64,000 nt of DNA from positions 76,198,001-76,262,000 of the forward strand of contig OZ024747.1 of assembly GCA_964016885.1 (NCBI GenBank). The letters are read 5' to 3'. Position numbers and translations under genes: made by a program. The DNA is from Eledone cirrhosa (lineage: Eukaryota). Of this stretch, positions 4,654 through 64,000 are shown piece after piece; the first letter of the stretch is position 1; each line of letters starts with the position of its first letter. The notes under the pieces are model-generated. The model saw nothing but the letters and a program-made list of their open reading frames with translations, ran no database searches and was not told the origin of the DNA.

Positions 4654-4690
4654 GATCCCGGGTTAAATCGGGGATAACCACAGTAAGTAA
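3769..4690. repeat. ~920-bp nested palindrome of PLE pLTR-like fragments
   Basis: 3769-4195 is the reverse complement of 4266-4690. Inner fold-backs at ~3935-4080 and ~4380-4520, plus a 22-bp perfect hairpin at 4196-4242. Confidence 0.9.
4249..4339 (+). ncRNA. Hammerhead ribozyme-like motif (type I, extra nt in core)
   Basis: cgtgt-CTGAAAGA-[stem II gca..gtag/ctac..tgc]-GAAA-CATTTG-TA-atacg. Stem I cgtgt/atacg, GUA cleavage triplet. Confidence 0.55.
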
Positions 4691-5410
4691 TTGAAAAAAT
4701 CACTGCCTACTGCGTCGGTGGCAAATTCAAAAGAATCAGTCACGTGACATCGAGGTCAATCAGTGAAGAGTGGTTTGTTCTGCATCCCCATGCATTGAAC
4801 CACAGAGTTACTAAGACAAAACCTATATATTTGCTAGCATAAGTATGCATCTGTATATATATATGTTACTAGATATATTAATTCTTTATAATTATCTCCA
4901 AATTATTTTGTCGAGCAAAAATTGGCCAAAACTGCTATTATAGTAACGGTCCGGCTGCTGTCTTCTTAACAAACCACTCTTCACTGATTGACCTCGATGT
5001 CACGTGACTGATTCTTTTGAATTTGCCACCGACGCAGTAGGCAGTGATTTTTTCAATGGCTTGGAATTTAGTCCACGCTTTGTTTTTTTCCATCTACTGA
5101 ATTATTTTTGTATAAGTTCCCTGTGTCCACGTATTGCCTGGAAACTTAGCTGAGAATAGACTTCCCTGATGACGAAAGGCTTCTCCGTACGTTTCTTCGG
5201 AAACTATGTTTATTCCCTTTCAGAAACTAATTAGTTGGAGTGAAATTTTAGTAAGTAAGTTAATTTTATAATTTTCTTATTTTACGTCTCTCATATTATT
5301 GTTCTGCATCCCCATGCATTGAACCACAAAGTTACTAAGACAAAACCTATATTTTTGCTAGCATAAGTATGCATCTGTGTACATATATGTTACTAGATAT
5401 ATTAATTCTT
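4691..5410 (+). mobile_element. Non-coding HHR-bearing retrozyme-like/non-autonomous PLE (family B), ~524-nt unit in partial tandem with 5' inverted segment
   Basis: Direct repeat 4777-4886 = 5301-5410. Inverted repeat 4691-4779/4968-5056. Ends in (TA)n. Homologous to 48486-50523. Confidence 0.8.
5161..5241 (+). ncRNA. Type I hammerhead ribozyme (family B)
   Basis: ttcc-CTGATGA-c gaaagg...cctttc a-GAAA-CTAATTAG-TT-ggag, with palindromic stem III. Confidence 0.8.
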
Positions 5411-5411
5411 G

Positions 5412-5453
<42 letters not shown>

Positions 5454-18345: not shown

Positions 18346-18390
<45 letters not shown>

Positions 18391-22316: not shown

Positions 22317-22494
22317 AATTTCTACTATTGGCACAAGGCCAGCAATTATTCCAGTACATTACTGGTATTTTATCGACCCCGTAAGGATCAAAGGCAAAGT
22401 TAACCTCGGCGGGATTTGAACTCAGAATGGCAAGGGCCGTAACTCTATGCGTCAAAGCATGGCGTCCTCTACCGATACTGCCAATCCACTGCCC
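22317..22494 (-). mobile_element. SINE family 1
   Basis: Reverse complement of 16356-16542. Confidence 0.87.
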
Positions 22495-24689: not shown

Positions 24690-25591
24690 AAATCAAGGTC
24701 TAGCAAATAGAGAAAAGGTTTTAAAATAAATTTTAAAAATTTCGCAGTACTTACTATATGTGCCTTTACCGCGGTTTCATGCTCCAGAATAAACGGAAAA
24801 TCCAAGCGGATTTCCATTGAGAAGGGAGCAATCTTCAGAAGGCTCTTCTCCCTCGGAGAATATAAAATTCCCGAGTTCAAATCACAAACTGTCGCCATAC
24901 AAAACCATTCCCAAAATGAGAGCAAATGATTAATGAAAGAAATAATTCTGTCTGGTGCCGTGTGCAAAGACAAAAGGCAGGGTGGACAGGTTAATGTACT
25001 GCCACTAGAAATAGCAGCAGTCTAAACGGCCAAAGTTTTATCTCTACCTTAGGGGGAGATCAATAATAATAAAGTATCAATTCCTACGTGTAAAAAATAC
25101 ATATAGGGGAACAAGTATTATCCAACCGTATGCCAATGTGGTTCTATGGCGGTTCTATGCTATTTATAGTGGCAGGACATTGACTTGTCCACCCTTCCTT
25201 TTGTCTTTACACACGGCACCAGACAGAATTATTTCTTTCATTCATCATTTGCTCTCATTTTGGGAATGGTTTTGTATGGCGTCAGTTTGTGATTTGAACT
25301 CGGGAATTTTATATTCTCCGAGGGAGAAGAGCCTTCTGAAGATTGCTCCCTTCTCAATGGAAAATCCGCTTGGATTTTCCATTTATTCTGGAGCATGAAA
25401 CCGCGGTAAAGGCACATATAGTAAGTACTGCGAATTTTTTAAAATTTATTTTAAAACTTTTTCTCTATTTGCTAGACCTTGATTTTATATGTTCTGGCTT
25501 GTTAATTTATTAACCCGCCATAGAACCACATTGGCATATGGTTGGATAATACTTGTTCCCCTATATGTATTTTTTACACGTAGGAATTCAT

Positions 25592-25600
<9 letters not shown>
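24688..25600. mobile_element. Compound fold-back of PLE pLTRs (family D) in (TA)n
   Basis: 24689-25016 is inverted to 25155-25488; 25069-25152 is inverted to 25516-25598. Confidence 0.85.
25331..25413 (+). ncRNA. Type I hammerhead ribozyme with extended stem II (mirror 24762-24843, - strand)
   Basis: gcctt-CTGAAGA-t tgctcc...[aatggaaaatcc gctt ggattttccatt]...ggagca t-GAAA-CCGCGG-TA-aaggc. Confidence 0.88.
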
Positions 25601-29194: not shown

Positions 29195-29253
<59 letters not shown>

Positions 29254-29455
29254 TTAGTTATACTATTTATGGTTATGTAAATACAAAACCTTAAGCAGTT
29301 GTAAGTATTTTACACACACCCTAAATAGTGGTAGGCAGTATTGTATTACTACCTTATTACCAGTAAGTTAAGTAGCTCAATGTAAAAACATCAGATGATT
29401 TACAGAGCAGTTATATGAAATATAAGAATCAAAGAACTGTTCAAAACATCATTGT

Positions 29456-29500
29456 GCTTACAGCTGTTTCCTCCAAACCGAGGTTTGGATTCTTCGGAGC
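29456..29500 (-). ncRNA. Hammerhead ribozyme in PLE1 3' pLTR (copies at 33649-33693 - and 33933-33977 +)
   Basis: tgct-CCGAAGA-a tccaaac ctcg gtttgga g-GAAA-CAGCTG-TA-agca. The U4C core variant is present in all three copies. Confidence 0.75.
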
Positions 29501-30938
29501 AATTTATTAATGCATGGACAGTTATATGACCTCCTCTTCAGCCGAGAGACATACCAATACATATTCAAACATTGATACATATTCAAACATTGTGGGTCAA
29601 CATTCATTACAGAATTTAGAGTGGCAGTACACACTTCGAGATTACATTTATATTAATAGGTACAATCAAAAATCAAAAATATAGGTTAAAATACAACATG
29701 AAGATAAGCGGTTATATAGTGCAAATGTTATATGTGTGGCACGCATGTGCGTCTTGTTTATATAGTGTGGCAGAGAGATATGTGTGGTAGAGGCACTTAG
29801 GTAGGTAAATAAGAGTGTTAGGTTGGTAGATCTGGTGGCAAATTCTTTATATGATTGATATAGTCTGTGTGTGGAGAAATATTATAAGCATTAAAGATAG
29901 TGCAAGCATTAAAAGTGTTATAAGTAATGGAGATGCACAGCGCAGGGATGTCAAGTATTTCATGCACTTCGGCATTTTCATGGTCAGGGGAGTGTATTTT
30001 TCGATTATATGCCCTTCACATAATCCACGACAATCCAGTTAGAGATCGTAGTCTGGTGTTCTTTAGTTCGATACAGGAGGTTGTTACGTTTCTAGAAACG
30101 CCATTGAATACCGCCCGGAAGTGTGTGTGTGGCTAAGGGGAGTTAATGCATGCGGGGAGGTAACTCTGGGGTTTCTATATCTAGCCATTAAAATGTGTCC
30201 CAATATAGACCCTAAATTCTATGGTGATGCGCATCTTCCAAGAGAGATTTTTAAAGTGTATTAACTATAGAGTAGTTTAAATAAGTTATGCTGAAGGTGA
30301 TCAAAATATTATGGTGGATTAACCCATCTTAAGGTGCCACAAATGGAAATTATAGATGATGAGCGAGGATTCTAAATTAATGATCTCTGTGGTTGTAGTC
30401 TGCTCATATGACCAGGCGCGGTGATTGCAGGCTTGCTTCAGGACCCAATGATCTCTGGTAGGATCTGGGTCATCGCTTGCTACATTTGATGTCGAAAGAT
30501 AATCATCCCCAGGCCGGCCAAAGGTCAATCCGCAGTCCTCGCGACCCCTCTCTGACCGTCAGATCATCCATATACGTACAACCCGCACGGCAGTTGCAAT
30601 GCATTCACTCACTGCGCTCAGCAGTCCGGTCCTACTGGTCAACAGCGCTACTCGAATAAATCATTTCACATCCGTCTAAGGAAGGTGTTTCCTCTGCACA
30701 ACACTATCCAACCGATCAATTCATGCTCAAATTACCCTTAGAGCGGTGTAGTGCCGTTCAAGTGGGTGGATGTTGTCACACCTGCCGTAGAGGTATAAAT
30801 GGGTATTCTCCCTGTGAAGGGTTCCAGAGGGATGTCGTTGTTTGTGTTATAATGGATCAGTTAGTGTTGGGTATGTAGTATAAGGTGTGTCTCTGGTGTT
30901 TGATGCTAGATGTGGTGTTAGGTTCCAGTCCGACATTG

Positions 30939-33398
30939 CTATATATTGGGCTTAAAGTTTTGGAAGGAATGTCTGAGGCGGTGCTGGCAAGTTGCAAACA
31001 CCTCAGATTTTTTGTTAAGTAGGTTACGGTTGGAGAAGATAATATTGTGTGTCTCTAGTATACAGAGGTTACAGAATTTATTAGGTGGTTTGTACGAGGT
31101 CGCGCTGCCTATCACTTCCCATTTGAGTGTGTATGGTTTATTTTTAGGTTTTAGATAGTGTATGTAGCTAGAAAGTGAGGTGGAGTTGGCTAGGCTGTGC
31201 TTTTTGAACGAGTGGATGTGCGAATTATATCTGATTTTGAAGCAGTTAGAAGTGGAGCCTACATAGGTTTCTGAAGAATTATTAGTCGTGACGGTGCATG
31301 AGTATATGACATCCTTGGTTAGGCATTTTTTATCTAAAGGGCAGGTTCTATTAGCTCTACAGTTACAATTATCCTGTGCGTTGGTCCGCTGGTTATAATG
31401 CAATGCGGAAGTCTGTGTGGTAGATATAGGATTTTGGGTGTTCGGGTTGACAACCCTGGTGTTATTACTTATACTAGTGTTATTTCTATTGTTACTGCCG
31501 TCGCTATGGTTGCTTGCTACAGTGGTATTTAGAGGGTTTGCATCCCGTTGTGATTTTGTTTGTTGGAAGTAAGAACTAATTTTACTATTATTGCTGCTAG
31601 CTATGTGGTATGCTAAGTTAGGCGTCGTAGAGTATGAGATTTTAATGGTGTTTTTGTTTAAGAGGTTGTGGTACTTGTGTCCTAGAGGGAAGTTTTTATC
31701 TAGTAGTGAGAAGAAAGCCCTAGGTATGTTGGTGGAGACATTTAGGTTGAAGGGAGGGTTGAAACATGTATTATTTCTTCTTCTATTTTTGCTTTTAGTA
31801 TTTGGTGTGTTGCTTCGTCCTAAGGCCCCACAGTAGTTTCCATGGTAATGGTTACTTCCGGTGGCACCCTCCGCTTTGGTGCACTTGTGGTTGCTATTCC
31901 TATTATTAGATTTCCTCATGGACATGTTGTGCGAGATGATGTTGTAGCTATGTGTTTTCTTAGGTAGGAACTCAATTTCTATATTATGGCCGGAGCTAGC
32001 TAATGCTTGATTGTAATATTGTGAGTTTTTGCTAAATATGTTTGCGTCATACGACAGACTAGAGATTCTATTGGACACCCCCTTAGAGATAGAGTTTAAT
32101 ATTGATCTAGGGTGATTAGACTTGGTATCTACGTAAATAAGTTTCTCATTAGGCTTATGGAAAGGTGTATATATTTTTGAGTCTAGGTATAGTGTGGCGT
32201 CTAGGAAGTTAACATTTTTAGTGTTTTTGTCCATGGTGATACTAAGGTTAAAGTTTTTGAATGTCTTATGCAGTTGTTTTCTAGTTCTTTCTATATTAGA
32301 TTTTTTATATTCTATAAGTAGAAGTGCATCATCGCGGTACAAACCACCGTTGAGGTAAGGGAGGTCCTTATGGATTTCATTGAGGAGGTATAGGCCGACC
32401 AAATCAGTGACCTGCGCCGAGTCACTAGATCCCATGGTTATGTCGAAGTTGTTGTGCGTATCCTTGCGTGTCCATAGTTGGTCCTCAAAGGAGATTATAG
32501 TTTTACGGGCCGCAAGGATGACATCAACCTGGGCTCTAGTCAGGTCGCTATTGGTCATGGCCATGATAAGTGCCTTATTTAATAGGATAGGGGAAATAGA
32601 GGTGTAGTACGAATTGATATCAAATTGAATAAATTTTTTGTTCTTATTATTCTTGATATCCTTGAACCATTCAATCACTTCACCCGTATTTCCCCATTGT
32701 TTGAGGTGTATCTTGTGTTTAATTTGTGGGATGATTTTATCCAAAATCTTCTTGCTGATAATACCAATGTCGGACTTGGAAGGGCAGATAAGACTTATCG
32801 TGGGGTTGCTGATGAAGTTCTCCTTATGGTCCTTCAGAGAGAATCTAGGGGGGTTCGGAGTGAAAGGTTGCGTATGCCTCTGTAGTCCTAGTTTAGACAC
32901 TATATTATAACCCTCTACATTAATATCTTCTAAGTTTTTCAAGGTGGTTTTTTTGTAGCTTTTATGTAGTTCATTATATATAAACTTTCTATAAGTATTA
33001 TAATCTAGGCTGTATATGTTATTAGTTTTATCTGCGTGTACAATAATTTTATTACTAGTCTTGAATCCATTAATAGAAGTGTTAAGTTTGTTTAAGAAGG
33101 TGTTGCTTTTAATATGGTGCTTATTGTATTTAATGTTCTTAACTAGTTTAACTAGGTCATTTTCAAAGGAGTTAAGTAGAGTGTTATGAGGGGGGCTTTT
33201 AAAGGTTTTAAAGCCGAAGGAGTCAAAATTGTTAGTATTATTCAAGTTGTTAGATTTGTTTCTATCATAATGGAATGTCCTCCATCTCACTCTATTGATA
33301 AATGAATTTACACTGTTGATCAGCAATTTCTCATATGTATTCCTGGATGGTATTGGTATGTTCTTGGTTGACATGGGGAGTTGGTCTTTGATTAGCAT
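30939..33398 (-). CDS. PLE reverse transcriptase + C-terminal GIY-YIG endonuclease (819 aa)
   Basis: FIQFDINSYYTSI, ITMGSSDS, GLYRDD, VNFLDATL, SNHP thumb; CNCR..CPL..C linker; VIY...YVGST..FK.RY..H; CNLC..E..LLNK. Confidence 0.95.
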   Translation of the reverse strand: MLIKDQLPMSTKNIPIPSRNTYEKLLINSVNSFINRVRWRTFHYDRNKSNNLNNTNNFDSFGFKTFKSPPHNTLLNSFENDLVKLVKNIKYNKHHIKSNTFLNKLNTSINGFKTSNKIIVHADKTNNIYSLDYNTYRKFIYNELHKSYKKTTLKNLEDINVEGYNIVSKLGLQRHTQPFTPNPPRFSLKDHKENFISNPTISLICPSKSDIGIISKKILDKIIPQIKHKIHLKQWGNTGEVIEWFKDIKNNKNKKFIQFDINSYYTSISPILLNKALIMAMTNSDLTRAQVDVILAARKTIISFEDQLWTRKDTHNNFDITMGSSDSAQVTDLVGLYLLNEIHKDLPYLNGGLYRDDALLLIEYKKSNIERTRKQLHKTFKNFNLSITMDKNTKNVNFLDATLYLDSKIYTPFHKPNEKLIYVDTKSNHPRSILNSISKGVSNRISSLSYDANIFSKNSQYYNQALASSGHNIEIEFLPKKTHSYNIISHNMSMRKSNNRNSNHKCTKAEGATGSNHYHGNYCGALGRSNTPNTKSKNRRRNNTCFNPPFNLNVSTNIPRAFFSLLDKNFPLGHKYHNLLNKNTIKISYSTTPNLAYHIASSNNSKISSYFQQTKSQRDANPLNTTVASNHSDGSNNRNNTSISNNTRVVNPNTQNPISTTQTSALHYNQRTNAQDNCNCRANRTCPLDKKCLTKDVIYSCTVTTNNSSETYVGSTSNCFKIRYNSHIHSFKKHSLANSTSLSSYIHYLKPKNKPYTLKWEVIGSATSYKPPNKFCNLCILETHNIIFSNRNLLNKKSEVFATCQHRLRHSFQNFKPNI

Positions 33399-34009
33399 AT
33401 TGGCAATATTATATGTCAGCTCAACGATATGGAGCAGTTAATAGTATTAGTTATACTATTTATGGTTATGTAAATACAAAACCTTAAGCAGTTGTAAGTA
33501 TTTTACACACACCCTAAATAGTGGTAGGCAGTATTGTATTACTACCTTATTACCAGTAAGTTAAGTAGCTCAATGTAAAAACATCAGATGATTTACAGAG
33601 CAGTTATATGAAATATAAGAATCAAAGAATTGTTCAAAACATTATTGTGCTTACAGCTGTTTCCTCCAAACCGAGGTTTGGATTCTTCGGAGCAATTTAT
33701 TAATGCAATTTATTAATGCATGGACAGTTATATGACCTCCTCTTCAGCCGATATTTTTGATTTTTGATTGTACCTATTAATATAAATGTAATCTCGAAGT
33801 GTGTACTGCCACTCTAAATTCTGTAATGAATGTTGACCCACAATGTTTGAATATGTATCAATGTTTGAATATGTATTGGTATGTCTCTCGGCTGAAGAGG
33901 AGGTCATATAACTGTCCATGCATTAATAAATTGCTCCGAAGAATCCAAACCTCGGTTTGGAGGAAACAGCTGTAAGCACAATAATGTTTTGAACAGTTCT
34001 TTGATTCTT

Positions 34010-34047
<38 letters not shown>

Positions 34048-40104: not shown

Positions 40105-40527
40105 AAAGAATAGAGGTGTAACACACAAGTTATTATATATTGGTAAACGGAATAGAAAATGCTGACAAATTGTTCACAGTTGAAAAATGGTTTAATTAGG
40201 AATAAAAGAGTATTAGTGATTTTATTGGTTAGTATTCAGTTGTGTTTTTAAGTTTTTAAGTTTTTACCGGTTGCGCATTTCTAAATGCTTTTCAAAAATA
40301 ATTTTGAGATAGAGTGTCCGTGTTGTTTGCTATGATCAGAGAAAACAACACGGACACTCTATCTCAAAATTATTTTTGAAAAGCATTTAGAAATGCGCAA
40401 CCGGTAAAAACTTAAAAACTTAAAACCACAACTGAATACTAACCAATAAAATCACTAATACTCTTTTATTCCTAATTAAACCATTTTTCAACTGTGAACA
40501 ATTTGTCAGCATTTTCTATTCCGTTTA

Positions 40528-40535
<8 letters not shown>
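40101..40535. mobile_element. Fold-back pLTR pair (family E) with atypical HHR motif (40373-40410 +, 40261-40298 -)
   Basis: Arms 40135-40328/40343-40535. ttt-TTGAAAA-gcattt ag aaatgc-GCAA-CCGG-TA-aaa. 34-nt extension on the left. Confidence 0.8.
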
Positions 40536-40612
<77 letters not shown>

Positions 40613-41465
40613 CGAAGGAAATGTGGTAAGGAACCAGGTGGACCATAACGCACCAAAGTACTCAATACTTGAGGTAGTAGAGTGGGTAATAGGAACCAGT
40701 AAGACCCCGACAGCTGAGCTCAAGCCGTTTCGACGGCTAATTCTGGACTAAATGAAAATTTATCCTGGTATTTAAATAGCCGATCTTCTCAAGGGGTAAT
40801 TCCATATATGGTCAAAGTGATTGTCAAAAATCAGTAGTAATTCTGTGGTTGCAAATTAGTAGGGGAGATGGTGACTAAACCTGCCAGTAGGAGAAAGAGG
40901 GGAGGGGGTGGAGTAGACCCAATCAAGCGTTGGTAGTGCCAGCTACAGCTGGGCATGAGGTCAAAGAAGATACAGGGGAGGGGGAGGGGGAGGAAGTCGG
41001 AACGGTAGGTAGAACAATGGGGGGTAGAAATAGGAAAGAAAAAATACTGAGAGTGAAGAAAAGCAAATAAGTGTAAAGAAAAAGAAAAAGTAAAGTAAAT
41101 TAAATTCAACGACCTAGGTGTCAGGCTATTGTTAGGCGAGAATAAAATAAAGAAAGAAAGAAAGAAGTAAATAAATAAATAAATAAATAAATAAGGAAAT
41201 AAGTAAGAGAACTAGGTGGGACGGATAAGGCAAGGACCCTTTTAAGAGGTATAAGTACGTAAATGATACGGTGACGGGTCAACAAAAGGGGCCAAAATAC
41301 TAAAGAGACTACCACGAAATAAACAATAAAGGTTTCCATCCCGGGCCAGCAACGACCCAGTGCAGCAAAGTGAACTTGTACGAGATAATAATTCTGAGTC
41401 CCGGGAAAAATATATACTAATGCTAACTCTAAAAGATCTAAAACAAGCTACATGAAAGTTCGTAC

Positions 41466-41591
41466 GAAATAATAATGCTGTTTTCGACGGACCAACTCCT
41501 AAACAAGAAAGATGAACTGGTTACTGCATGTAAACATAGATTGCGTAGGACTTACCTCGCCCTCAAACCCCATAATGACCCGGGGGGGTAG
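41466..41591 (+). pseudogene. C-terminal fragment of PLE GIY-YIG ORF
   Basis: EIIMLFSTDQLLNKKDELVTACKHRLRRTYLALKPHNDPGG* aligns with PLE1 IIFSNRNLLNKKSEVFATCQHRLRHSFQNFKP. Confidence 0.8.
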
Positions 41592-42705
41592 ACTGGGGCT
41601 ATAACACCCCAGTTGCCGATTTTGCAATGGGTAACCCCTGCTTGCCAAGGAAGACGTAAGATCTTCTTTGTATTCTTTTATCGCTTCCTTTATTTCCTCC
41701 CCCCCTCTCTCCTTTGTCCTTCTACCCCAGCTCTTCTCCTTTGTCGGCGTCTTTTCTCGCCCACCCGAGGCTGCCCTTTGGCCCCATGTAGCCTTAGTAC
41801 CCCCCCCCCCCCCCCCCTCCCCTAGTCTTTGATAGATTTGGTGGACTCCGCCCTTTATAGCAGTTGGCTTAGACCCCGGATACTTTCCCCCTTTTTCCGA
41901 CCGCTCCCACTATTCTCTGTGCCCTCTATATTTCTTAGTGGCACTTATGCCTTATTTTTTCGTTTCAGTATTTCTTGCTTCGCTTTTCTTCTGGGCGGGG
42001 TGGATTCTGAATTTATTTCTCCGTATTCTACCTTTATTTCGTACGAACTTTCATGTAGCTTGTTTTAGATCTTTTAGAGTTAGCATTAGTATATATTTTT
42101 CCCGGGACTCAGAATTATTATCTCGTACAAGTTCACTTTGCTGCACTGGGTCGTTGCTGGCCCGGGATGGAAACCTTTATTGTTTATTTCGTGGTAGTCT
42201 CTTTAGTATTTTGGCCCCTTTTGTTGACCCGTCACCGTATCATTTACGTACTTATACCTCTTAAAAGGGTCCTTGCCTTATCCGTCCCACCTAGTTCTCT
42301 TACTTATTTCCTTATTTATTTATTTATTTATTTATTTACTTCTTTCTTTCTTTATTTTATTCTCGCCTAACAATAGCCTGACACCTAGGTCGTTGAATTT
42401 AATTTACTTTACTTTTTCTTTTTCTTTACACTTATTTGCTTTTCTTCACTCTCAGTATTTTTTCTTTCCTATTTCTACCCCCCATTGTTCTACCTACCGT
42501 TCCGACTTCCTCCCCCTCCCCCCTCCCCTGTATCTTCTTTGACCTCATGCCCAGCTGTAGCTGGCACTACCAACGCTTGATTGGGTCTACTCCACCCCCT
42601 CCCCTCTTTCTCCTACTGGCAGGTTTAGTCACCATCTCCCCTACTAATTTGCAACCACAGAATTACTACTGATTTTTGACAATCACTTTGACCATATATG
42701 GAATT

Positions 42706-42799
42706 ACCCCTTGAGAAGATCGGCTATTTAAATACCAGGATAAATTTTCATTTAGTCCAGAATTAGCCGTCGAAACGGCTTGAGCTCAGCTGTCGGGGT
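42706..42799 (+). ncRNA. Type I hammerhead ribozyme, U3-A8 core (mirror 40703-40797, - strand)
   Basis: acccc-TTGAGAA-ga t cggcta...tagccg tc-GAAA-CGGC ttgagctca GCTG-TC-ggggt; GUC triplet. Confidence 0.85.
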
Positions 42800-42809
42800 C
42801 TTACTGGTT

Positions 42810-42849
<40 letters not shown>

Positions 42850-44495: not shown

Positions 44496-44862
44496 TAATT
44501 GTTTCTATATTTGGCTTAAGGCCAGCGATTTTGAAGGCAAGAGACAAATCGATAAAATAGATCCCAGTACATTACAGGTACTTTATTTTATCGAGCCCGT
44601 AAGGATGAAAGACAAACCTAACCTCGACGGGATTTGAACTCAATAATAATAATAAAATATTGGTTTCTGATTTAGACACAACGCCAACAATTTTGGGGTA
44701 TCGGAAAGTTGATTAAATCTAATCCAGTGCATTACTGGTACTTTATTGTTTCGACTCCTTAAGGATGAAAGGCAAAGCTAACCTCGGTGGGATTTGAACA
44801 CAGATCCATAAGTCTATGCCGTGAAGCATGGTGTCCGACGCTCTACCGATGCTGCCAATCTA
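44496..44862 (-). mobile_element. Two tandem SINE family 1 copies
   Basis: Two antisense cores at ~44570-44643 and ~44730-44800. Confidence 0.8.
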
Positions 44863-44955
44863 CCCATCCACACATACATACATGGATACATACATACATA
44901 CACACATACATACATACATACATACATACATACATACATACATACATACATACAT

Positions 44956-46962: not shown

Positions 46963-48491
<1,529 letters not shown>

Positions 48492-48657
48492 AATTTATAT
48501 CTAGTAACATCTATATACACACAGATGCATATCAATGCTAGCAAATATATAGGTTTTGTCTTATTAACAATGTGGTTCAATGCATGGGGTTGCAGAACAA
48601 TAATATGAGAGACGTAAAATAAGAAAATTATAAAATTAACTTACTTACTAAAAAATC

Positions 48658-48732
48658 ACTTCCAACTAATTAGTTTCTGGAATGGAGTAAATATATTTTC
48701 CGAAGAAATTTATATTCCGTCATCAGGAAAGT
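48658..48732 (-). ncRNA. Type I hammerhead ribozyme, family B (tandem partner 49174-49256)
   Basis: actttc-CTGATGA-c ggaat...attcc a-GAAA-CTAATTAG-TT-ggaagt. Confidence 0.85.
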
Positions 48733-50266
48733 CTTTTTCCGTATAGGTCTCCAGGCATAGCGAGGACACTGGAAACTTATTAAAAAAATAATTCAGTGAA
48801 TGGAAATAGCGATGCGTGGACTGGATTCCAAGCCATTGAGAAAATCACTGCCTCTACGTCCGTGGCAAATTCAAAAAGAATCAATCACGTGACATCGAGG
48901 TCAATCAGTGGAAAGCGAGTGGTTATTAAGACAGCGGCCAGCTTACTACCATAGTAGCAGTCATGGCCAAATATTGCTCGACAAATGAATTGGAGATAAT
49001 TATAAGGAATTTATATCTAGTAACATCTATATACACACAGATGCATATCAATGCTAGCAAATATATAGGTTTTGTCTTATTAACAATGTGGTTCAATGCA
49101 TGGGGTTGCAGAACAATAATATGAGAGACGTAAAATAAGAAAATTATAAAATTAACTTACTTACTAAAAAATCACTTCCAACTAATTAGTTTCTGGAATG
49201 GAGTAAATATATTTTCCGAAGAAATTTATGGAAAATCATTCCGTCATCAGGAAAGTCTTTTATTCCACTGAATTATTTTTTTAATAAGTTTCCAGTGTCC
49301 TCGCTATGCCTGGAGACCTATACGGAAAAAGACTTTCCTGATGACGGAATGATTTTCTATAAATTTCTTCGGAAAATATATTTACTCCATTCCAGAGACT
49401 AATTAGTTGGAAGTGATTTTTTAGTAAGTAAGTTAATTTTATAATTTTCTTCTTTTACGTCTCTCATATTATTGTTCTGCAACCCCATGCATCAGGGAGT
49501 CTATTCTCAGCTAAGTTCTCAGGCAATGCGCGGACACTAGGAACCCATATAAAAATAATAATTCAGTGGATGTAATAAGCTAGCGAGGACTAAATTCCAT
49601 AGCACTGAAAAAGTTCACTGCCTCTGGTCAATGGCAGATTCTAAAGAATCAATCACGTGACACTGAGGTTAGTCAGTTAGGAGTGGGGTGGTATTATAAC
49701 AAGAGCCTACTACTACTACTATGAATTAGCAGTAGATTTGGCAAGTTTGCTCAACAAATAATTTGGAGATAAATATAGAGAATTAGTACATCTACCAACA
49801 TATGCGTACAGATGTACACTAAATTTTAGTAAGTAAGTTAATTTTTAATTTTTAAAATTTTCTTATTTTACGTCTTTCATATAATTGTTCTGCATCCCCC
49901 TGCATAGAACCACCTAGGTACTTTGACATAACTTATATATTTGCTAGCATTAGTGTACATCTGTACGCATATGTTGGTAGATGTACTAATTCTCTATATT
50001 TATCTCCAAATTATTTGTTGAGCAAACTTGCCAAATCTACTGCTAATTCATAGTAGTAGTAGTAGGCTCTTGTCATAATACCACCCTACTCCTAACTGAC
50101 TAACCTCAGTGTCACGTGATTGATTCTTTAGAATCTGCCATTAACCAGAGGCAGTGAACTTTTTCAGTGCTATGGAATTTAGTCCTCGCTAGCTTATTAC
50201 ATCCACTGAATTATTATTTTTATATGGGTTCCTAGTGTCCGTGCCTGGGAACTTAGATGAGAATAG

Positions 50267-50348
50267 ACTCCCTGATGACGTAATGAATTCTCGATAGTTA
50301 TATTGTGTAACTATATTTATCCCATTACAGAAACTAATTAGTTGGAGT
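50267..50348 (+). ncRNA. Type I hammerhead ribozyme, family B subfamily (the 49332-49414 copy has GAAA>GAGA)
   Basis: actcc-CTGATGA-c gtaatg...cattac a-GAAA-CTAATTAG-TT-ggagt. Confidence 0.85.
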
Positions 50349-50520
50349 GAAAATTTTAGTAAGTAAGTTAATTTTTAATTTTTTTAATTTTCTTATTTTA
50401 CGTCTTTCATATAATTGTTCTGCATCCGCCTGCATAGAACCACCTAGGTACTTTGACATAACTTATATATTTGCTAGCATTAGTGTACATCTATACGCAT
50501 ACGTTGGTAGATGTACTAAT

Positions 50521-50593
<73 letters not shown>

Positions 50594-50599
<6 letters not shown>

Positions 50600-51690
50600 T
50601 AAATCATGTCTTTAGAATCACTAGATATAATATATACCATTTCCTCTCCCAATTAGCATAATTAACCATATAAAAAATCAATTAGACCAAGCTATAAGAA
50701 TAAAGGCTCCTATGAATAAATTTTCGACAAATAACCGAAAGCGGCCTCTTTGCGGTGACGCCAATAGAGTATTTATCCAACATTTCAACAGCATGTAGAA
50801 ATTGACCAAATTTACCGTCAACCAAAAACAATTAGGTGTAAATTCAAACTTAGAAGAAATGCGTACATACCTTAAATATCTCTACCATGGTTTCGTCCGT
50901 ATTTTAAGACATCCAATAACAGGAAATGTCCAGAGCTTCGGACTCATCAGGAGCGAACTCAAAATTAGACATTTAATTTTCCAAAGTGATCGCGCTAAAA
51001 ATAGATTCATTTATGTATATGTAAACCTTTATATTTAATAATCTCCCGTTAGGTTGAGACACAATTTGGCGATATTGGGCTGCGCTTTCTAGCAACAAGC
51101 CTACCCGCCGTAAGCAACTAATCACATCCTTTCTAACTTGACAACTGCCACGTCAAGATTCTTAGCCATTTTTGAATCTATTTTTGGCGCGATCACTTTG
51201 GAAAATTAAATGTCTAATTTTGAGTTCGCTCCTGACGAGTCCGAAGCTCTGGACATTTCCTTGTTATTGGATGTCTTAAAATACGGACGAAACCATGGTA
51301 GCGATAATTAAGGTATGTACGCATTTCTTCTAAGTTTGAATTTACACCTAATTGTGGATGGTTGATCGTAAATTTGGTCAATTTCTACATGCTGTTGAAA
51401 TGTTGTATAAATACTCTATAGGCGTCACCGCGAAGAGGCCGCTTTCGGTTATTTATCGAAAATTTCTTCATAGGAACCTTTATTCTTATAGCTTGGTCTA
51501 ATTGATTTTTTATATGGTTAATTATGCTAATTGGGAGAGGAAATGGTATATATTATATCTAGTGATTCTAAAGACATGATTTATGATATATTGCTCTGAT
51601 TATTTAATTTATTAATTCTTCATTGAGCCACAACGTGACCGGTTGCAAAACATATATATCTATGACTTTATGTATATGTAAACCTTTATA
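50594..51690. mobile_element. Head-to-head pLTR pair (family F) in (TA)n
   Basis: 50594-51009 is inverted to 51172-51590 with scattered mismatches; ~100-nt extension on the right. Confidence 0.85.
50880..50953 (-). ncRNA. Type I hammerhead ribozyme (variant copy 51226-51304, + strand, CTGACGA)
   Basis: ctc-CTGATGA-gtccg...cggac-GAAA-CCATGG-TA-gag. Confidence 0.88.
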
Positions 51691-51901
51691 TATATATATA
51701 TATTGTTTGTTACCCTACGTCCCCTTTATTTACGTGTCCCAACGACTTTTTTTAGCCGTTGTTCGCACCAACCTGAGGCATATGGCCCTTAAAGCGATGA
51801 AATGCCTGGGACGGATGAAGGACTTACTTTTTCATATGCACCACCATTTGCAACGCGCAGCCATCATTATTATCATATATATATATATATATATATATAT
51901 A

Positions 51902-53513: not shown

Positions 53514-53558
<45 letters not shown>

Positions 53559-54667
53559 GATAAATCTACCAAGAGTTTACGGTAGTGTCCAATCCGTATG
53601 AAGAACTCAATGTATTCCGGATATCATGGAAAGAAGAGATGTAATGAAAATCCACTTTCGGTGAAAGATAAACGGTATACAGAGTCAAGATAAAATATTA
53701 AACAAATAATGAACAAACAATTCCTTATATTAAACAAAAAAAGTTCACTATTTAACGATCGTTTCTAGGGTATATATGTGTTATAATTAGTATGCATATT
53801 TAACAGATCTATGTACAAAATTATACAAAATTATACAAATTATCAAGATTAAATATACATACCTAACTCATATATACGCCGTCTTCAGAAATAATGAAGT
53901 ATATTTATTGATAATAACAACAATTCAAAATATCAGTTCAAAATTGACCAATGAAAACACAAAGGGTTAAAAGCAGTTTGGTGTGTGTATATACATGTAA
54001 AAACCTTACACATATTTTACAATAATGTGTGTATAATTTGTATGTGCATACTAAAAAGATGGGTGCAAACACAAAATTTCAAGGTTAATATCTCTGTAAG
54101 CTTAATGCGCTGATAAGATACGCAATGATACTTATGGAGTCAAGCATATAAATATATTTTTTTCATACTCACACATATCAGTATAATCACACATACATGT
54201 GCGTATATGCATAAATATACACATAACCACGAACATACAAACACACACACTCCCCCACTCACATTTATATATGTGGATATAAAATCATAAGCAAATAGAA
54301 ATTAAGTCACTCACATAAAAACACTGGTACACACATTTCAAGATCAAGATACAGAAATTAGGTGGGAGGGGGGGGGGAGGGGTCAGTATTAGATTGTCAG
54401 ACCAGACAGCCTAATATAAATGTATCTATAAATTAAGAAAAATAAAAAAATAAAAACAATAAAATATAATAAATATATTATAATGTACATACACATACAG
54501 ATATACATACACTTACATACATGTACGCGCACATAGAGATATCTACACATACATACATACACACATACCTATACTGTCATACACACACATACATTTACAC
54601 GAACATATACATACACATATAAAAAGATATAAATACACACACACTCACGCGCAACACGTACACACAT

Positions 54668-54706
<39 letters not shown>

Positions 54707-55063
54707 TATACACACACACATAGACTCATATATATATATATATACATACATATAATATATATACAAACATATATATCACCACACTCATACCACCATAAAT
54801 ACACATACAAACACCCACATGTATATATATATATATATATACATATATCCACATACACACACATACACATATATATATATATATATACACATATATACAC
54901 ATACATATATATATATATACACACACATAAAAAACAGACATGCACATATATATATATATATATATATACACTTCATTACTCTTATATATACACACAGTAT
55001 ATATACATACACAACCTCACTTATACACATATACACATAAGTTATATTACAATAATAATAAAG

Positions 55064-55106
<43 letters not shown>

Positions 55107-55312
55107 TATACACATACATATATATATATACACATACATACATACACATACATACATACACCCAAATATATACATACATAAATACACACATACGAATAAA
55201 GACATATATTCACACATAGACACCCATATACACATATATACATATACATATATATATACATCTATATATATACACATACATATATATATATATATATATA
55301 CACATATATAGA

Positions 55313-56929
55313 TCTAATTTAACTTCGGATGACATTAACATTATTACACATGCTAGACAAACACTTATTGAATTTCAGAATGAATACTGGACCAGAAACA
55401 CTTACAGTAATCTTTTTGATATTACTATGGGTTCAAGTGATTCCGCCCAAATTACTGATCTTGTGGGCCTCTTTCTCCTTTTCAACATAAATGCCTCTTT
55501 TCCCCACCTCAAAGGTGGTTTATATCGTGATGACTGTCTTCTTCTTTCTAACAACCTTAGCCTTTCAGAAATCGAAAAAAACAAAAAGCATATTAGAACT
55601 TTCCTTAAAGACTATTATAATCTTAATATTACTTTTGAAAAAACAAGTAAAGTAGTAAATTTCCTAGATATAACTTTAGATTTAGCTACGGGTATATACC
55701 AACCTTACCATAAACCTAACCAAAACTTACATTACATACACTCACAATCTAATCACCCTAAATCTATCCTTAAAAACCTTGCATATAATATATCACTTAG
55801 AATTTCTAACCTTTCCTCTAACCAAGATATATTTGATAAAAATGCGACCTTTTATAATGAAGCTCTAGATAGAAGTGGCCACAAAAATAGATTAGAGTAT
55901 ATACCTTCTACTAAAAATACTGAAAGCTTACAGCATAATATTACCAACAAACACCATATGAAAAGTACACACCTAAATGCCACCCACAGTATACCCCAAA
56001 ATACTAAATCTTCTAATATAAAGTATAGTAACCCTCAAAAAACTACTCATCATACGACTATAATAAATATTAATAATAAAACTCCTAATAAAAAAGATAA
56101 AACACCTAAATCTACAAATATAACTAAAGATAGTTGTGGTGAGATCATTAACATTAATCCTCCTAGTAAAAATCATGATACAACATATAAAAATAATAAA
56201 AATAATAAACAACATAGAAACCGTAATAGACGAGTTACTTGGTATAATGCTCCTTTTAATTTACAAGTTAAGGATAATATTGCTAAAAAATTTTTTTATA
56301 TCCTTGAGAAAAACTTCCCGCCAAACCACAAATACCATCAAATCTTAAATAGGTCTACAGTTAAATTCTCATATTCTACAACAAATAACATAAAACAAAA
56401 TATAAGTGCATATAATGCATATAAATGTAAGAAAACCATAAGTATACCACCAGTACATCAAATTAACAATAATATCTCCTCAAATACAGAATTAACGAAA
56501 GGATGTAACTGTAGAAACAAAACAAACTGCCCATTAAAAGGGAATTGTCTTGTTAACAACATAGTCTATAAATGTAATGTTAAAACTAAAGATTCTATTT
56601 GCTCATATATAGGAGCTACCTCTAACAATTTTAAGACAAGGTATAATACCCACAAACATAGCTTTAAAAATGCCGCACTGGCTAATACAACATCTCTAGC
56701 AGAAAAAATCAATAGTTATAAAAATAAAAATATAAAATATGATTTGACCTGGAGTGTGCTCAAAAGAGCCACCCCTTATCAAAATAATAGAAAGGAATGT
56801 AGATTATGTTCCCAAGAACTATTTGAAATAATGAAGTCTAGGGATATCTTATTAAATAAAAGACAGGAATTAATTATATCGTGTAATCATAAACTAAAAA
56901 AAACATTTAAATATTATAAACCTAATTAA
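55313..56929 (+). CDS. PLE RT (from upstream of motif B) + GIY-YIG endonuclease, 5'-truncated
   Basis: The frame is open upstream of the track ATG (SNLTSDDINIITHARQTLIEFQNEYWTR..FDITMGSSDS) and homologous to PLE1. GLYRDD, VNFLDITL, CNCR..CPL, IVY..YIGAT..FKTRY. Confidence 0.92.
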   Translation, partial: SNLTSDDINIITHARQTLIEFQNEYWTRNTYSNLFDITMGSSDSAQITDLVGLFLLFNINASFPHLKGGLYRDDCLLLSNNLSLSEIEKNKKHIRTFLKDYYNLNITFEKTSKVVNFLDITLDLATGIYQPYHKPNQNLHYIHSQSNHPKSILKNLAYNISLRISNLSSNQDIFDKNATFYNEALDRSGHKNRLEYIPSTKNTESLQHNITNKHHMKSTHLNATHSIPQNTKSSNIKYSNPQKTTHHTTIININNKTPNKKDKTPKSTNITKDSCGEIININPPSKNHDTTYKNNKNNKQHRNRNRRVTWYNAPFNLQVKDNIAKKFFYILEKNFPPNHKYHQILNRSTVKFSYSTTNNIKQNISAYNAYKCKKTISIPPVHQINNNISSNTELTKGCNCRNKTNCPLKGNCLVNNIVYKCNVKTKDSICSYIGATSNNFKTRYNTHKHSFKNAALANTTSLAEKINSYKNKNIKYDLTWSVLKRATPYQNNRKECRLCSQELFEIMKSRDILLNKRQELIISCNHKLKKTFKYYKPN

Positions 56930-58249
56930 TAACATTATTCTAGAATTTAATTTAATTTAAATGTTAGTTAACCTATAAATTTAATTTAATTAATTTTTTA
57001 TTACAGATGAGAAAATATTATGTAATCATAAATTTTGAAAAACCTTTAAATATTACTAATATATACTCAGTAATTTAATTTATAGATTAATTTTAATTTA
57101 TTTTAACCTTTTATTATAATTTTTTTTATTATAATTCTTTTACAGATAAAATATAACAAAATAATATCATGTATCCTATGACGGAGAAAGAATTTTTAGT
57201 ATTATAGACCTAATTAATATACATTTTGGAAATATATTTATTATTTGGTTTTAGTTTTAATCAACCTAAAACTTTAATTTTAATTTGCTTAAAATTAGTA
57301 TCCTTGTACAGACGAATTGCAGAATGTCATGTAATCATAGAATGGGATGTGTTTTGGATATATACCTAGTTAATATATTCTGTGCAATTTTTTGAAAAAG
57401 ATATGTATATCTATATGTATATGTATATGTGTGTATTGTATGTGTATCTGTATGTATATTTATGTGACTATATATATATATATATGTGTATATATGTGTA
57501 TATATATATATATATATGTGTGTATATGTATATATATGTGTATGTGTATGTATATGTATATGTATGCGTATTAATTTTGATTTTTATTTGCATATAATTA
57601 TATTATGCTATTGATGAAATACAATATCTGCTTTATGTATTGTATACCTAATTAACATATACTAATTAACGTATACTATTGAAATAAATATATAATTTTT
57701 AATTTAGTTAACATATAATTTATATGCTACTACCGATGTAATACTTTATTTTATTTTTATTTGGTTCTCTTTTCCCTATTACTAAATTCATCTCCTAATA
57801 TTGATACCATAACGTTATTAACTTTGATTTAGTTATAATGTAATTAATAATCTACTACTGTTTGACTTCATAATTCTGCTTCAAATATTATAAACCTAAC
57901 TAATTTACACCTTGTAAATCAATATGTTGACTATCTTTGGTTTAGTTAACATATGATTAATGGTATACTTTTTTATTTTGGGATGCATAGATTTCGTATT
58001 TCCTAGCATTGAAAATATGTAAGAACATACATTGAATTAAGATACGGAAAATATTATATGTTTCTTGAAACATATATTTACTTTGATCCCCTTCTCCAAA
58101 CCCCCCCTTTCCCCCATACTATTATCATCTGTTTTTGTAAGCGTATATGTATGAATATATGTGTAGGTGGGTGTCTATATAGGTTTTGGTATTTATTTCT
58201 AAATATAAAAATACATATATGAGCATGTAAATATGAATGTAAGATTGAG

Positions 58250-58877
58250 TGTGTATATATGATTGTACATACATATGTATGTATATATATGTATATATAT
58301 GTATTATATATGTATGTGTATGTGAATGTGTGGTATGTATATGTGTATGTATATGTATATATGTGTATGTGTATGCTTGTATATAGGAATATATATATGT
58401 GTATATATGTATGTATATGTATATGCGTGTTTGTATGTATGTGTATATGGGTTCTGTATATATTTGTATGTCTCTCTATTTATATGTTTATCTTCGTATC
58501 TATGTGATATATGTGTGTGTGTGTGCACGTATGCATATGTATGTGTTTGTGTGTGTTTGTATGTGTGTGTGTGTATATATATATATATGTATTTGCGCAC
58601 ACTCACATACACATATATATATATATATATGTGAGTGTGTATGTGTGTCTGTGTGTGTGTGTGTGTGTGTATGTGTATATATATATGTATATATATATAT
58701 ATATATATGTATGTGTATATATATAGATGTATATATATATGTATATGTATATATGTGTATATGGGTGTCTATGTGTGAATATATGTCTTTATTCGTATGT
58801 GTGTATTTATGTATGTATATATTTGGGTGTATGTATGTGTATGTATGTATGTGTATATATATATATGTATGTGTATA

Positions 58878-58920
<43 letters not shown>

Positions 58921-59277
58921 CTTTATTATTATTGTAATATAACTTATGTGTATATGTGTATAAGTGAGGTTGTGTATGTATATATACTGTGTGTATATAT
59001 AAGAGTAATGAAGTGTATATATATATATATATATATATGTGCATGTCTGTTTTTTATGTGTGTGTATATATATATATATGTATGTGTATATATGTGTATA
59101 TATATATATATATATGTGTATGTGTGTGTATGTGGATATATGTATATATATATATATATATACATGTGGGTGTTTGTATGTGTATTTATGGTGGTATGAG
59201 TGTGGTGATATATATGTTTGTATATATATTATATGTATGTATATATATATATATATGAGTCTATGTGTGTGTGTATA

Positions 59278-59316
<39 letters not shown>

Positions 59317-59500
59317 ATGTGTGTACGTGTTGCGCGTGAGTGTGTGTGTATTTATATCTTTTTATATGTGTATGTATATGTTCGTGTAAATGTATGTGTG
59401 TGTATGACAGTATAGGTATGTGTGTATGTATGTATGTGTAGATATCTCTATGTGCGCGTACATGTATGTAAGTGTATGTATATCTGTATGTGTATGTACA
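58250..59500. repeat. Degenerate (TA)/(TG) microsatellite inside the PLE2 3' UTR
   Basis: The part from ~58680 is copied nearly exactly, in inverted form, at 54480-55300. Confidence 0.9.
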
Positions 59501-60085
59501 TTATAATATATTTATTATATTTTATTGTTTTTATTTTTTTATTTTTCTTAATTTATAGATACATTTATATTAGGCTGTCTGGTCTGACAATCTAATACTG
59601 ACCCCCCCCCCCCCTCCCACCTAATTTCTGTATCTTGATCTTGAAATGTGTGTACCAGTGTTTTTATGTGAGTGACTTAATTTCTATTTGCTTATGATTT
59701 TATATCCACATATATAAATGTGAGTGGGGGAGTGTGTGTGTTTGTATGTTCGTGGTTATGTGTATATTTATGCATATACGCACATGTATGTGTGATTATA
59801 CTGATATGTGTGAGTATGAAAAAAATATATTTATATGCTTGACTCCATAAGTATCATTGCGTATCTTATCAGCGCATTAAGCTTACAGAGATATTAACCT
59901 TGAAATTTTGTGTTTGCACCCATCTTTTTAGTATGCACATACAAATTATACACACATTATTGTAAAATATGTGTAAGGTTTTTACATGTATATACACACA
60001 CCAAACTGCTTTTAACCCTTTGTGTTTTCATTGGTCAATTTTGAACTGATATTTTGAATTGTTGTTATTATCAATAAATATACTT

Positions 60086-60236
60086 CATTATTTCTGAAGA
60101 CGGCGTATATATGAGTTAGGTATGTATATTTAATCTTGATAATTTGTATAATTTTGTATAATTTTGTACATAGATCTGTTAAATATGCATACTAATTATA
60201 ACACATATATACCCTAGAAACGATCGTTAAATAGTG
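60086..60236 (+). ncRNA. Hammerhead motif with ~116-nt stem II region (mirror 53746-53896, - strand)
   Basis: cattattt-CTGAAGA-cgg c gtatatatg...catatatac cct a-GAAA-CGATCG-TT-aaatagtg; 8-bp stem I. Confidence 0.75.
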
Positions 60237-60283
60237 AACTTTTTTTGTTTAATATAAGGAATTGTTTGTTCATTATTTGTTTA

Positions 60284-60344
<61 letters not shown>

Positions 60345-61322: not shown

Positions 61323-61424
61323 CACCGAGGTTAACTTTGCCTTTCATCCTTACGGGGTCGATAAAATAAAGTACCAGTAATGCACTGGATAATTGCTGGC
61401 CTTGTGCCAAATGTAGAAACAATT
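61323..61424 (+). mobile_element. SINE family 1, 3' half
   Basis: Core and tail present. Confidence 0.82.
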
Positions 61425-61441
61425 ATATATATATATGTGTG

Positions 61442-61924: not shown

Positions 61925-63162
61925 ATATATACATATATGTGCTTGTGTGTCTGTGTGTATGTGTTTATGGGTGTGTGAACATATGTGCATATGTTTATTT
62001 AATGTTTGTTAATGCATCGTATGAAAAGTTCGTTAGAAACAGTGGCAAGCTAGATTCATTCATCCATACTCCTCACTGTTACATTGAACAATGGTAGATG
62101 AAAAATTATATATATTCGGACTGAATACGGTGAGGTCGACTGGCTCTTTTGTTATCAAATGGAACAATAAAAAGATTGAAAACAAAACGAGAGAGAAATA
62201 CTTTTAATCTACTAAATACGGAAATATATAATGCAGACTACAAAGAAATTAAAAAAAATAAAGAATATAAAATGAGAAAAATCTGCAGACAGAAGCCATT
62301 TCATGAATTCATTTGTTTTCTATAGAATATCGGCTTATGCTAATATATGAGTTTTCTTTGAGTTAGGTCTACCATTCAATTAATTAGAAGAATTTCTGGT
62401 TTTGGACAATTAATTCAGACTCTTTGATACAGGTTTTGTAAATGAAATATTACATCCAGTCGGAGAAACAAATCTATCTGACATCGGTAGCTTAAGAAGA
62501 ATAACGTTAAAAAGAACAAGAATTTAACGTAGCATCATTAAGCTGAGTAAAATCTAGAATAAAGGAACATATTTTACAACAGACTGTTAATGGTTATATG
62601 CAAATATCCTTTACCTTATGTAGAAATATCAAATAACTGACGTTTCTTTCCAGAAGCAAAGACAATATCTGCTTCTAACGATCATTTAAATCAACACACT
62701 AGTTTAAGTCAACCCATGATTGAAATTTATTTCAAGCCCAATAATAAGGCTTACGTATATTGTATCAACAATATATGTTAAGTATTTACGACTTTATGTA
62801 TTCAATCGTTAGTGAATGTTAAATATCATACATACAGCACTTTATAGTTTTGATGATGAGATAATTTTAGTCTGGTTCGATCATTAGATAGAAAAACTGA
62901 AAATATTGCAATATTGATTATTATATATGATCAATGAATAAAATAGATTCAGCATTTATAACCAGCAATAATGAAACACTACATTTTAATTTAAATCAAT
63001 ATACTAACAATTTCACATATTGATTCGTTTAGTAGATTTTACTAGTATTTAGTAGATCTTACTTAGATTCATTTAGTTCATATTTTGGTTGAATATTTTA
63101 TAATTTAGTGGCACGTGGAACTTATATGGAAGTAAGGAAAATCTTGACGCCCCAATGTATAT

Positions 63163-63430
63163 AGGCGGCGAATTGGCAGAGTCGTTAAGACGTCGGATAG
63201 AATGATTTACGGGTTTCGTCCCACCTCTTTGCGCGCTCTGAGTTCAAATGCCGCCGAGGCCAACTTTGCCTTTCATTCTTTCGAGGTTGATAAAAAATGT
63301 ATCAGCCCAGTACTGGATTGATTCTTCCTCTATAGAAAATATCGTCTGTGTTCAGACATGGAGAGGGTTGGGCTCCACCAGGTTTAAAAGTGCCCTAGAC
63401 CTGCCATACGATGGTGCCACTATGACTCCA
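63163..63430 (+). mobile_element. SINE family 1, long-tail subfamily
   Basis: ggcggcgaattggcagagtcg head, gagttcaaat B-box, core and extra tail. Confidence 0.75.
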
Positions 63431-63532
63431 AAAGGAGTTATGGGATCTTTATCCTTTATCCTTTATTTATTTCAGGAATATAGTACAAATAATTCGAATC
63501 AACCAGTTGCCTGCAATGTGTCAGTACTAGTA

Positions 63533-64000
63533 ATAATTGTTTCTACTTTAGGCACAAGGCCAGCAATTACCCAGTACATTACTAGTAATAATTGTTTCTA
63601 CATTTGGCACAAGGCCAGCAATTAACCAGTGTATTACTGGTACTTTATTTTATCGACCCCGTAAGGATGAAAGGCAAAGTTAACCTCGGCGGGATTTGAA
63701 CTCAGAATGGCAAGGGCCGTAACTCTATACGTCAAAGCATGGCGTCCAACCCTCTACCGATACTGAAGCTTGGTGGACGGGAAAGTCGAATAAATCGACC
63801 CCAGTACGTTACTGGTTCATTATGTTATCAACCGTGTAAGGATGAAAGGCGAAGCTAACCTCAGCATTGACTTTATAAATTGCCGGCCTTGTGCCTGTAT
63901 TAGAAACCATTATTATTTAAGTCTTCAAAGGTTAACTTTGCCTTTCATCCTTACGGGGTCGATAAAATAAAGTACCAGTAATGTGCTGGTTAATTGTTGG
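63533..64000. mobile_element. Cluster of SINE family 1 copies and fragments in both orientations
   Basis: 63533-63765 (-, duplicated tail), 63780-63865 (-), 63878-63915 (+), 63928-64000 (+, runs off the window). Confidence 0.82.

Follow-up and report, generated by a model that had tools for sequence, protein, structure and literature searches.

A hammerhead-bearing non-coding repeat of Eledone cirrhosa, probably a passenger of Hydra-clade Penelope-like elements

Metazoan non-LTR retrozymes are non-coding tandem repeats carrying one type I hammerhead ribozyme (HHR) per unit (PMC7229834; bioRxiv 10.64898/2026.07.22.740005). They have a GC content below 50%, occur in thousands of copies together with Penelope-like elements (PLEs), and have been argued to be non-autonomous PLE derivatives with consensus lengths of 51-972 bp (bioRxiv 10.64898/2026.07.22.740005). 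PLE insertions in turn are described as a partial tandem with an inverted arm and a one-sided tail, and PLEs of the Hydra clade target (TA)n and carry near their 3' end an HHR with a stem II mismatch and, frequently, a GUU cleavage site (PMC8557442). The repeat unit reported here shares all of these traits of retrozymes and of Hydra-clade elements. Unlike retrozymes as far as the available parts of these sources describe them, its unit exceeds the 170-400 nt of the assayed circles, stem II of its PLE-type HHR is long and built in two parts, and its copies show the inverted arms of PLEs and, within (TA)n, two fixed ends; the two PLEs of the stretch analysed yielded no pLTR homologue. Unlike Hydra-clade PLEs, the unit has no ORF, and a bulged hairpin that it has in common with them is not mentioned in the available part of PMC8557442. 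The tail, described as 30-40 nt in PLEs (PMC8557442), measures 117 nt in the unit and 164 nt in PLE1, a PLE of the same stretch.

Two further systems are close. In the Poseidon element PAc of Anolis, as in our unit, two internal RT starts define the tail, the target is AT-rich and both strands are primed (PMC11167929). PAc starts lie inside an AC-rich stem-loop in the ORF, whereas each start of the unit lies 5' of its own bulged hairpin; RNA reads ending at the HHR cut were looked for in PAc and not found (PMC11167929), whereas genomic 5' ends of the unit cluster there. Like the unit, the non-autonomous Chlamys elements, e.g. MRC1, are short PLE passengers with head-to-tail insertions; unlike it, they share 3' sequence with their autonomous partners and are mostly without HHRs (PMC8557442).

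Analysing a 64,000-nt stretch of Eledone cirrhosa DNA (contig OZ024747.1, positions 76,198,001 to 76,262,000; hereafter the window), we found three copies, A, B and C, of a hammerhead-bearing repeat of about 525 bases (Table 1). A 19-mer spanning GAAA, stem III and the predicted cut had 12,089 exact matches in the 3.0-Gb genome and its reversed control had none, indicating that the unit occurs far beyond chance. Searches with whole units gave 3,088, 3,442 and 1,878 first-look candidates, of which about 40 were scored each. The 73 cut-to-cut intervals collected reduced to 54 distinct monomers of 471-571 nt, 25 of them of 523-526 nt, and copies ranged from fragments to ~4 tandem units. The longest ATG frame on either strand of the three window units was 53 aa and blastx of these units against the two window PLE proteins returned nothing below E 0.4. 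The unit is thus ORF-less: it has the tandem non-coding organization of retrozymes, with one type I HHR each, and no RT and GIY-YIG ORF between pLTRs, as an autonomous PLE would have. Amplification at the DNA level also occurs locally, one insertion being repeated at ~2.55-kb spacing (G000:C4:38.10-38.12 Mb); divergence was lower within an array than between arrays in 13 of 28 cases, the compared segments partly including flanks. Run X1 covers unique flank at ~15x and hence behaves as DNA. Related pieces are present in small-share runs of organisms B-E.

Self-BLAST recovered the three partial tandems of the preliminary description, with periods of 524 (4775/5299), 516 (48485/49001) and 530 nt (49821/50351). 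The HHR motifs, the pairings of stems I and II and the palindrome ACTAATTAGT were likewise all in place, as was the one copy with GAGA, whose core is at 49338 (+ strand). The interval cited there, 48486-50523, proved to be two insertions, one of subfamily A (-) and one of subfamily C (+), whose inverted arms join head-on with a 3-nt overlap, likely as a result of later deletion. Inverted arms, absent from that description, are present in each of the copies A, B and C. Of the two minus-strand HHRs described as intact, the one at 49174-49256 is so, while that at 48658-48732 has an 8-nt deletion in stem II and has lost its fold, stems I and II not being folded in the MFE structure. Copy A alone has two HHRs on one strand; its unit is 516 nt long, whereas the usual length in subfamily A is 525 nt.

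Table 1. Copies of the unit and other PLE-type elements in the window
Feature	Position	Strand	Remarks
Copy A main arm	48486..49261	-	~1.5 units; 3' end at S2 into (TA)n(TG)n; locus L081
Copy A type I HHR, full length	49174..49256	-	predicted cut after 49180 (GUU)
Copy A type I HHR with 8-nt stem II deletion	48658..48732	-	predicted cut after 48664
Copy A S1 bulged hairpin	49091..49114	-	GUUC-UGCA..UGCA-UU-GAAC; second copy ~48575-48598
Copy A S2 hairpin motif	48977..48995	-	CUCC..G-UC-GAG, just 3' of internal S2 site
Copy A predicted anti-junction helix segment	48902..48917	-	complementary to both flanks of cleavage site
Copy A inverted arm	49264..49492	+	holds GAAA>GAGA HHR; 3' end lost at copy C junction
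Copy C inverted arm	49490..49822	-	
Copy C main arm	49821..50523	+	~1.3 units; starts 7 nt after predicted cut; S2 end in (TC)n(TA)n; locus L061
Copy C type I HHR	50267..50348	+	predicted cut after 50343
Copy C S1 bulged hairpin	50417..50440	+	S1 at 50412
Copy C S2 hairpin motif	50004..50022	+	
Copy B inverted arm	4690..4779	-	
Copy B main arm	4775..5413	+	~1.2 units; S2 end in (TA)n(TG)n
Copy B type I HHR	5160..5241	+	predicted cut after 5236
Copy B 117-nt tail, S1 (5296) to S2 (5413)	5297..5413	+	S1 hairpin 5301-5324
Copy B S2 hairpin motif	4896..4915	+	
PLE1, autonomous Hydra-type PLE, candidate helper	29248..34021	-	832-aa frame 30939-33437
PLE2, Hydra-type	53555-60292		5'-truncated frame 55220-56929 (+); long inverted arms, microsatellite-rich flanks, S1 hairpin
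F2, HHR family unrelated to unit	50598-51703		period 657; canonical core, palindromic stem III, ends ~103 nt apart
F3, short HHR family	24690-25598		period ~487-491; U.U mismatch under stem II, ends ~110 nt apart

In the unit the HHR core reads CUGAUGA-C...A-GAAA, and a C.A mismatch lies beneath stem II. PLE HHRs have an extra base between positions 9 and 10.1 (PMC4209133), many Hydra HHRs (File S2) are mismatched under stem II, with U at the cut and a short self-complementary stem III, and the HHR of PLE-X1_cBra has an identical ctgatgac/agaa core (PMC8557442 File S2). The unit HHR matches the Hydra HHRs in its mismatch under stem II, its GUU site and its short self-complementary stem III. 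Alignment of distinct HHR motifs upheld the covariation of stem II across the family: with the 131 distinct motifs reduced to 28 representatives, 92.5% of cells were paired vs 82.1% in shuffles and 55 double-sided changes were counted vs 21, one stem II pair taking four pair types, figures that do not represent a probability, the sequences being related. MFE folds of the monomer formed stems I and II and did not form stem III, which fits dimer dependence (PMC4209133). Rfam Hammerhead_1 (RF00163) did not report the HHRs of 48300-51700 at E<=10, probably because of the long insert in stem II; the 150 Rfam matches listed for the window were microsatellite-driven miRNA noise.

To describe the ends we used 64 best-match loci (70 less six that repeated an insertion already included or belonged to one local amplification) and 49 tail-selected loci (11 of 60 were dropped as duplicates). 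Among the 105 arms of the best-match loci, 60 ended at one site, S2, 33 at a second, S1, positioned 117 nt upstream of S2, and 12 elsewhere. With S2 taken as a narrower class, 46 of 47 S2 ends and 32 of 33 S1 ends ran into TA/TC. An inverted arm was present in ~60% of loci (38/64 best-match and 30/49 tail-selected), and where both outer ends survived, S1 was paired with S2 (28/28 and 19/20 loci of the two sets, which share about ten). Copies of the unit are therefore 5'-truncated partial tandems with an inverted arm and a one-sided 117-nt tail, as in non-autonomous PLEs, and combine (TA)n targeting with a Hydra-type HHR. Off-site arm ends at five loci (L002, L066, L083, L089 and L196) continue into non-TA sequence and may be further template-switch chimeras.

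We conclude that the unit is, with good probability, a non-autonomous passenger of Hydra-clade PLEs, likely borrowing their RT. The mechanism first proposed, a non-coding HHR unit copied beyond unit length by the RT of a (TA)n-targeting PLE, is retained, with the helper narrowed to the Hydra clade. It is unlikely that a different (TA)n-targeting clade (Naiad or Neptune) serves the unit or that it is a satellite or foldback repeat spread at the DNA level, its ribozyme a relic. Naiad likewise prefers (TA)n and has inverted arms with tails (PMC8557442), but the hairpin common to Hydra elements, the Hydra-type HHR and a chimera with a Hydra-type ORF (L150, below) point to the Hydra clade. Many near-perfect inverted repeats in the window would suit a foldback origin; the fixed, strand-specific 3' ends and ragged 5' ends are, however, marks of retrotransposition, and an assembly artefact is made less likely by contigs from other runs, in which S1 is again followed by TA.

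The protein of PLE1 has RWR, DKT, CxCX5C, CxxC and CxH, and since RW(R), DKT, CxCX5C, CxxC and CxH are the motifs given for Hydra (PMC8557442 section 11), the clade call was based on them; Pfam did not recognise either window PLE protein. All 150 scored matches of the PLE1 protein were 90-100% identical, many of them 98-100%, and many keep the full 832-aa frame, indicating that PLE1 is young and high-copy. Its fixed ends, at 29412 and 29248, lie 164 nt apart and both have hairpin motifs of the unit type. Between the unit and either window PLE there was no extended nucleotide homology, only short motifs in common, and therefore no parent or specific helper is named. Families F2 (4,736 first-look candidates) and F3 (which at G000:C1:176.44-176.45 Mb forms an array of about 19 copies) show no sequence relationship, share the two-end pattern of the unit and had no ATG frame >46 aa in the monomer examined.

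Other repeats of the window were recorded as well. A family at 3769-4690 (also L150:1230-2590) represents the 3'-terminal part of another, third Hydra-type PLE, whose ORF end is seen in L150; in the window it forms a near-perfect palindrome adjoining the inverted arm of copy B. Near-perfect inverted repeats with (TA)n flanks at 17980-18349, 40134-40537 and 40689-42814 are probably other PLE-type insertions. Two fragments of a non-LTR RT element, each from an (ATT)n tract, lie at 6628-10241 (-), and a very high-copy short repeat at 5575-5780 shows ~140-nt go-back joints in reads. SINE-like dispersed short repeats are found at 556-751, 11107-11255, 14876-15004, 16334-16547, 22311-22516, 44496-44864, 61323-61431 and 63158-64000. 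Shortly after the predicted cut, at 5251-5256 and equivalent positions, the unit, F2 and F3 have a splice-donor-like GTAAGT/GTATGT, and PLE1 has GTAAGC; introns in PLE pLTRs are known.

The preliminary description had named as its refuting case that all copies are the pLTR of one long PLE, and had asked if any copy is joined to an RT ORF. A PLE protein match was present in 22 of 216 overlapping stretches (40 of the 216 being about +-4 kb around position-picked sites), and in 21 of these 22 microsatellite sequence parts the unit from the match. In the exception, L150, a unit arm is fused directly to the 5'-truncated C-terminus of a Hydra-type ORF with its own, different 3' UTR and end, and the opposite arm contains 3.9 units. 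One fusion was thus found, and no copy in these stretches was the pLTR of an ORF. That the units are 5'-truncated pLTR ends of a long autonomous PLE, given their short period by local duplication, appears very improbable from these separations and from the lengths of the 54 distinct monomers, although the architecture of the unit is that of PLE ends and a rare parent with this HHR is possible, a few hundred of the >12,000 sites having been inspected. L150 itself reads as one insertion that would have been copied from two RNAs; a deletion between neighbours is possible at this single locus.

A predicted bulged hairpin (YUC-stem-2 nt bulge-GAR) follows closely on the 3' side of each fixed end. 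S1 is within about 6 nt 5' of YUC-UG..CA-U(U/A)-GAR in the unit, F3, the window F2 copy, PLE1 and PLE2, and in the unit this motif lies 5-6 nt after the end, once per unit; S2 is followed closely by CUC-C..G-UN-GAG in the unit, F2, PLE1 and the window F3 copy. The motif was defined after seeing the five families; its strict form occurs once in each unit subfamily, and in shuffled units it occurred anywhere in about 2% (S1) and about 1% (S2). Published Hydra consensuses, read by eye afterwards, showed the hairpin clearly in three of six, namely Hydra-2_Amil (U-A and A-U upper pairs), Hydra-1_Ajap and Hydra-2_Ajap; by the same reading it was partial in Hydra-1_Crog and not seen in Hydra-1_Obim (PMC8557442 File S7). 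The S2 form was not the MFE fold in most local contexts, nor was the hairpin of the 3769 family folded in the MFE structure; the strict S1 motif was absent from the F2 copy L242, and an F3 copy was scanned without the strict S2 motif. Given that the hairpin lies 3' of the start and is uncopied at that end, it is best read as an RT-binding element, in line with the internal initiation of PAc cDNA (PMC11167929).

The 5' ends of the copies are not evenly spread. Among 43 tail-anchored S2 arms, 14 stop at -1 to +19 of the predicted cut, nine on the first pass and five of the 15 at risk on the second; the stop hazard near the predicted cut was 0.0129 per nt vs 0.0018 elsewhere (sevenfold), and none of 5000 simulations reached so full a 21-nt stop window. 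In the full-unit set, 14 of 39 arms at risk stop at the cut on the second pass. AT-richness was rejected as the cause of the truncations, because the next 40 nt are richer in AT (82% vs 71%) yet have 3 stops vs 14 (5 stops in the full-unit set); a second, smaller stop cluster in another AT-rich stretch indicates some AT effect. Most of the cut-region stops lie 4-19 nt past the cut and not on it. The cluster may be read as run-off from cleaved 5' ends with slight trimming, and this pile-up suggests that the RNA is cleaved in vivo and that templates are linear; an RT stalled by the folded ribozyme could also give such stops. The second-pass pile-up is easier to reconcile with linear multimers cleaved at some of their sites than with an intact circle, so that at least some templates would be linear multimers. 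With 33 of the 43 arms passing the predicted cut, sites left uncut or religated are common; more than one unit is present in 21.

Circular RNAs have been shown for retrozymes in coral, mussel and axolotl (PMC7229834). A classical retrozyme cycle, in which the unit would be released and ligated to a ~525-nt circle serving as rolling-circle RT template, has the PLE helper in common with our preferred reading and differs in the template. The arms that pass the cut or exceed one unit, and the 3.9 units of L150, are what such a circle would yield, and priming at S2 needs an RNA crossing the unit junction; tandem genomic copies can, however, supply long linear templates. In 11 of 13 monomers, all but those of 471 and 484 nt, the predicted cut is bridged by pairing with a segment that lies about half a unit away, and this pairing, which is kept in the GGG subfamily, could splint ligation and silence the ribozyme. 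The helix is 91% paired, but it has no double-sided change, its single p values run from 0 to 0.17, and it was not significant in F2 or F3 (p 0.48 and 0.075). Sense circular folds gave z of -4.7, -1.7 and -3.1 (30 shuffles). The second-pass stops at the cut (in both sets) are hard to obtain on a closed circle. On balance we regard the circle, which the preliminary description thought probable, as possible, though we would sooner expect it not to be the main template. Double-sided changes were present at two pairs of a long-range helix that spans S2. Junction insertions were rejected as a mark of template jumping: they had 656 matches vs 7 in the control, but 96 of the 100 listed belonged to one GGG subfamily.

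In the cycle that we infer for a Hydra passenger, tandem copies would be transcribed across the unit junction, and a weak, probably dimer-dependent HHR would cut some of the sites, giving RNAs that start at a cut and retain uncut sites. A Hydra RT-endonuclease would bind one of the two bulged hairpins, nick (TA)n DNA and prime on the AUAU/UAU adjacent to that hairpin on its 5' side. One arm would be copied from S2 and the opposite arm from S1, yielding the inverted structure with the 117-nt tail on one side, and cDNA would stop randomly or at the 5' end left by a cut. Against this explanation we count that only one of nine retrozyme dimers was cleaved in vitro (bioRxiv 10.64898/2026.07.22.740005) and that HHR mutants of PAc were still inserted in vitro (PMC11167929). 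A bolder form makes the unit a minimal RNA replicon: the bulged hairpin, from coral and sea cucumber to the present genome, would be a recognition code of Hydra RTs for priming on the AUAU 5' of it, the HHR would set template 5' ends in vivo, the antisense segment would splint a circle, and at least three unrelated parasites would use the code. We put this forward tentatively, leaning slightly against it.

The preliminary description did not recognise the family as a described one. We too found no paper on the unit family, the hairpin or the truncation bias in a search of the published literature, and the family may already be deposited in Repbase or Dfam or stand in the supplements of the 2026 preprint; the kind of element, by contrast, is already described, as non-LTR retrozymes that are non-autonomous PLE derivatives (bioRxiv 10.64898/2026.07.22.740005). 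New are the hairpin at both ends, the 5' truncations at the predicted cut and the fusion of L150 to a Hydra-type ORF end. How PLE RTs choose their RNA and what role PLE hammerheads have are open questions (PMC8557442, PMC11167929). A 525-nt RNA, two mapped starts and a candidate helper available as many open 832-aa frames make both testable in vitro. As a cis signal, the hairpin goes beyond co-occurrence in tying a retrozyme-like repeat to a single PLE clade, and the truncation pattern provides genomic evidence that the ribozyme may cut in vivo.
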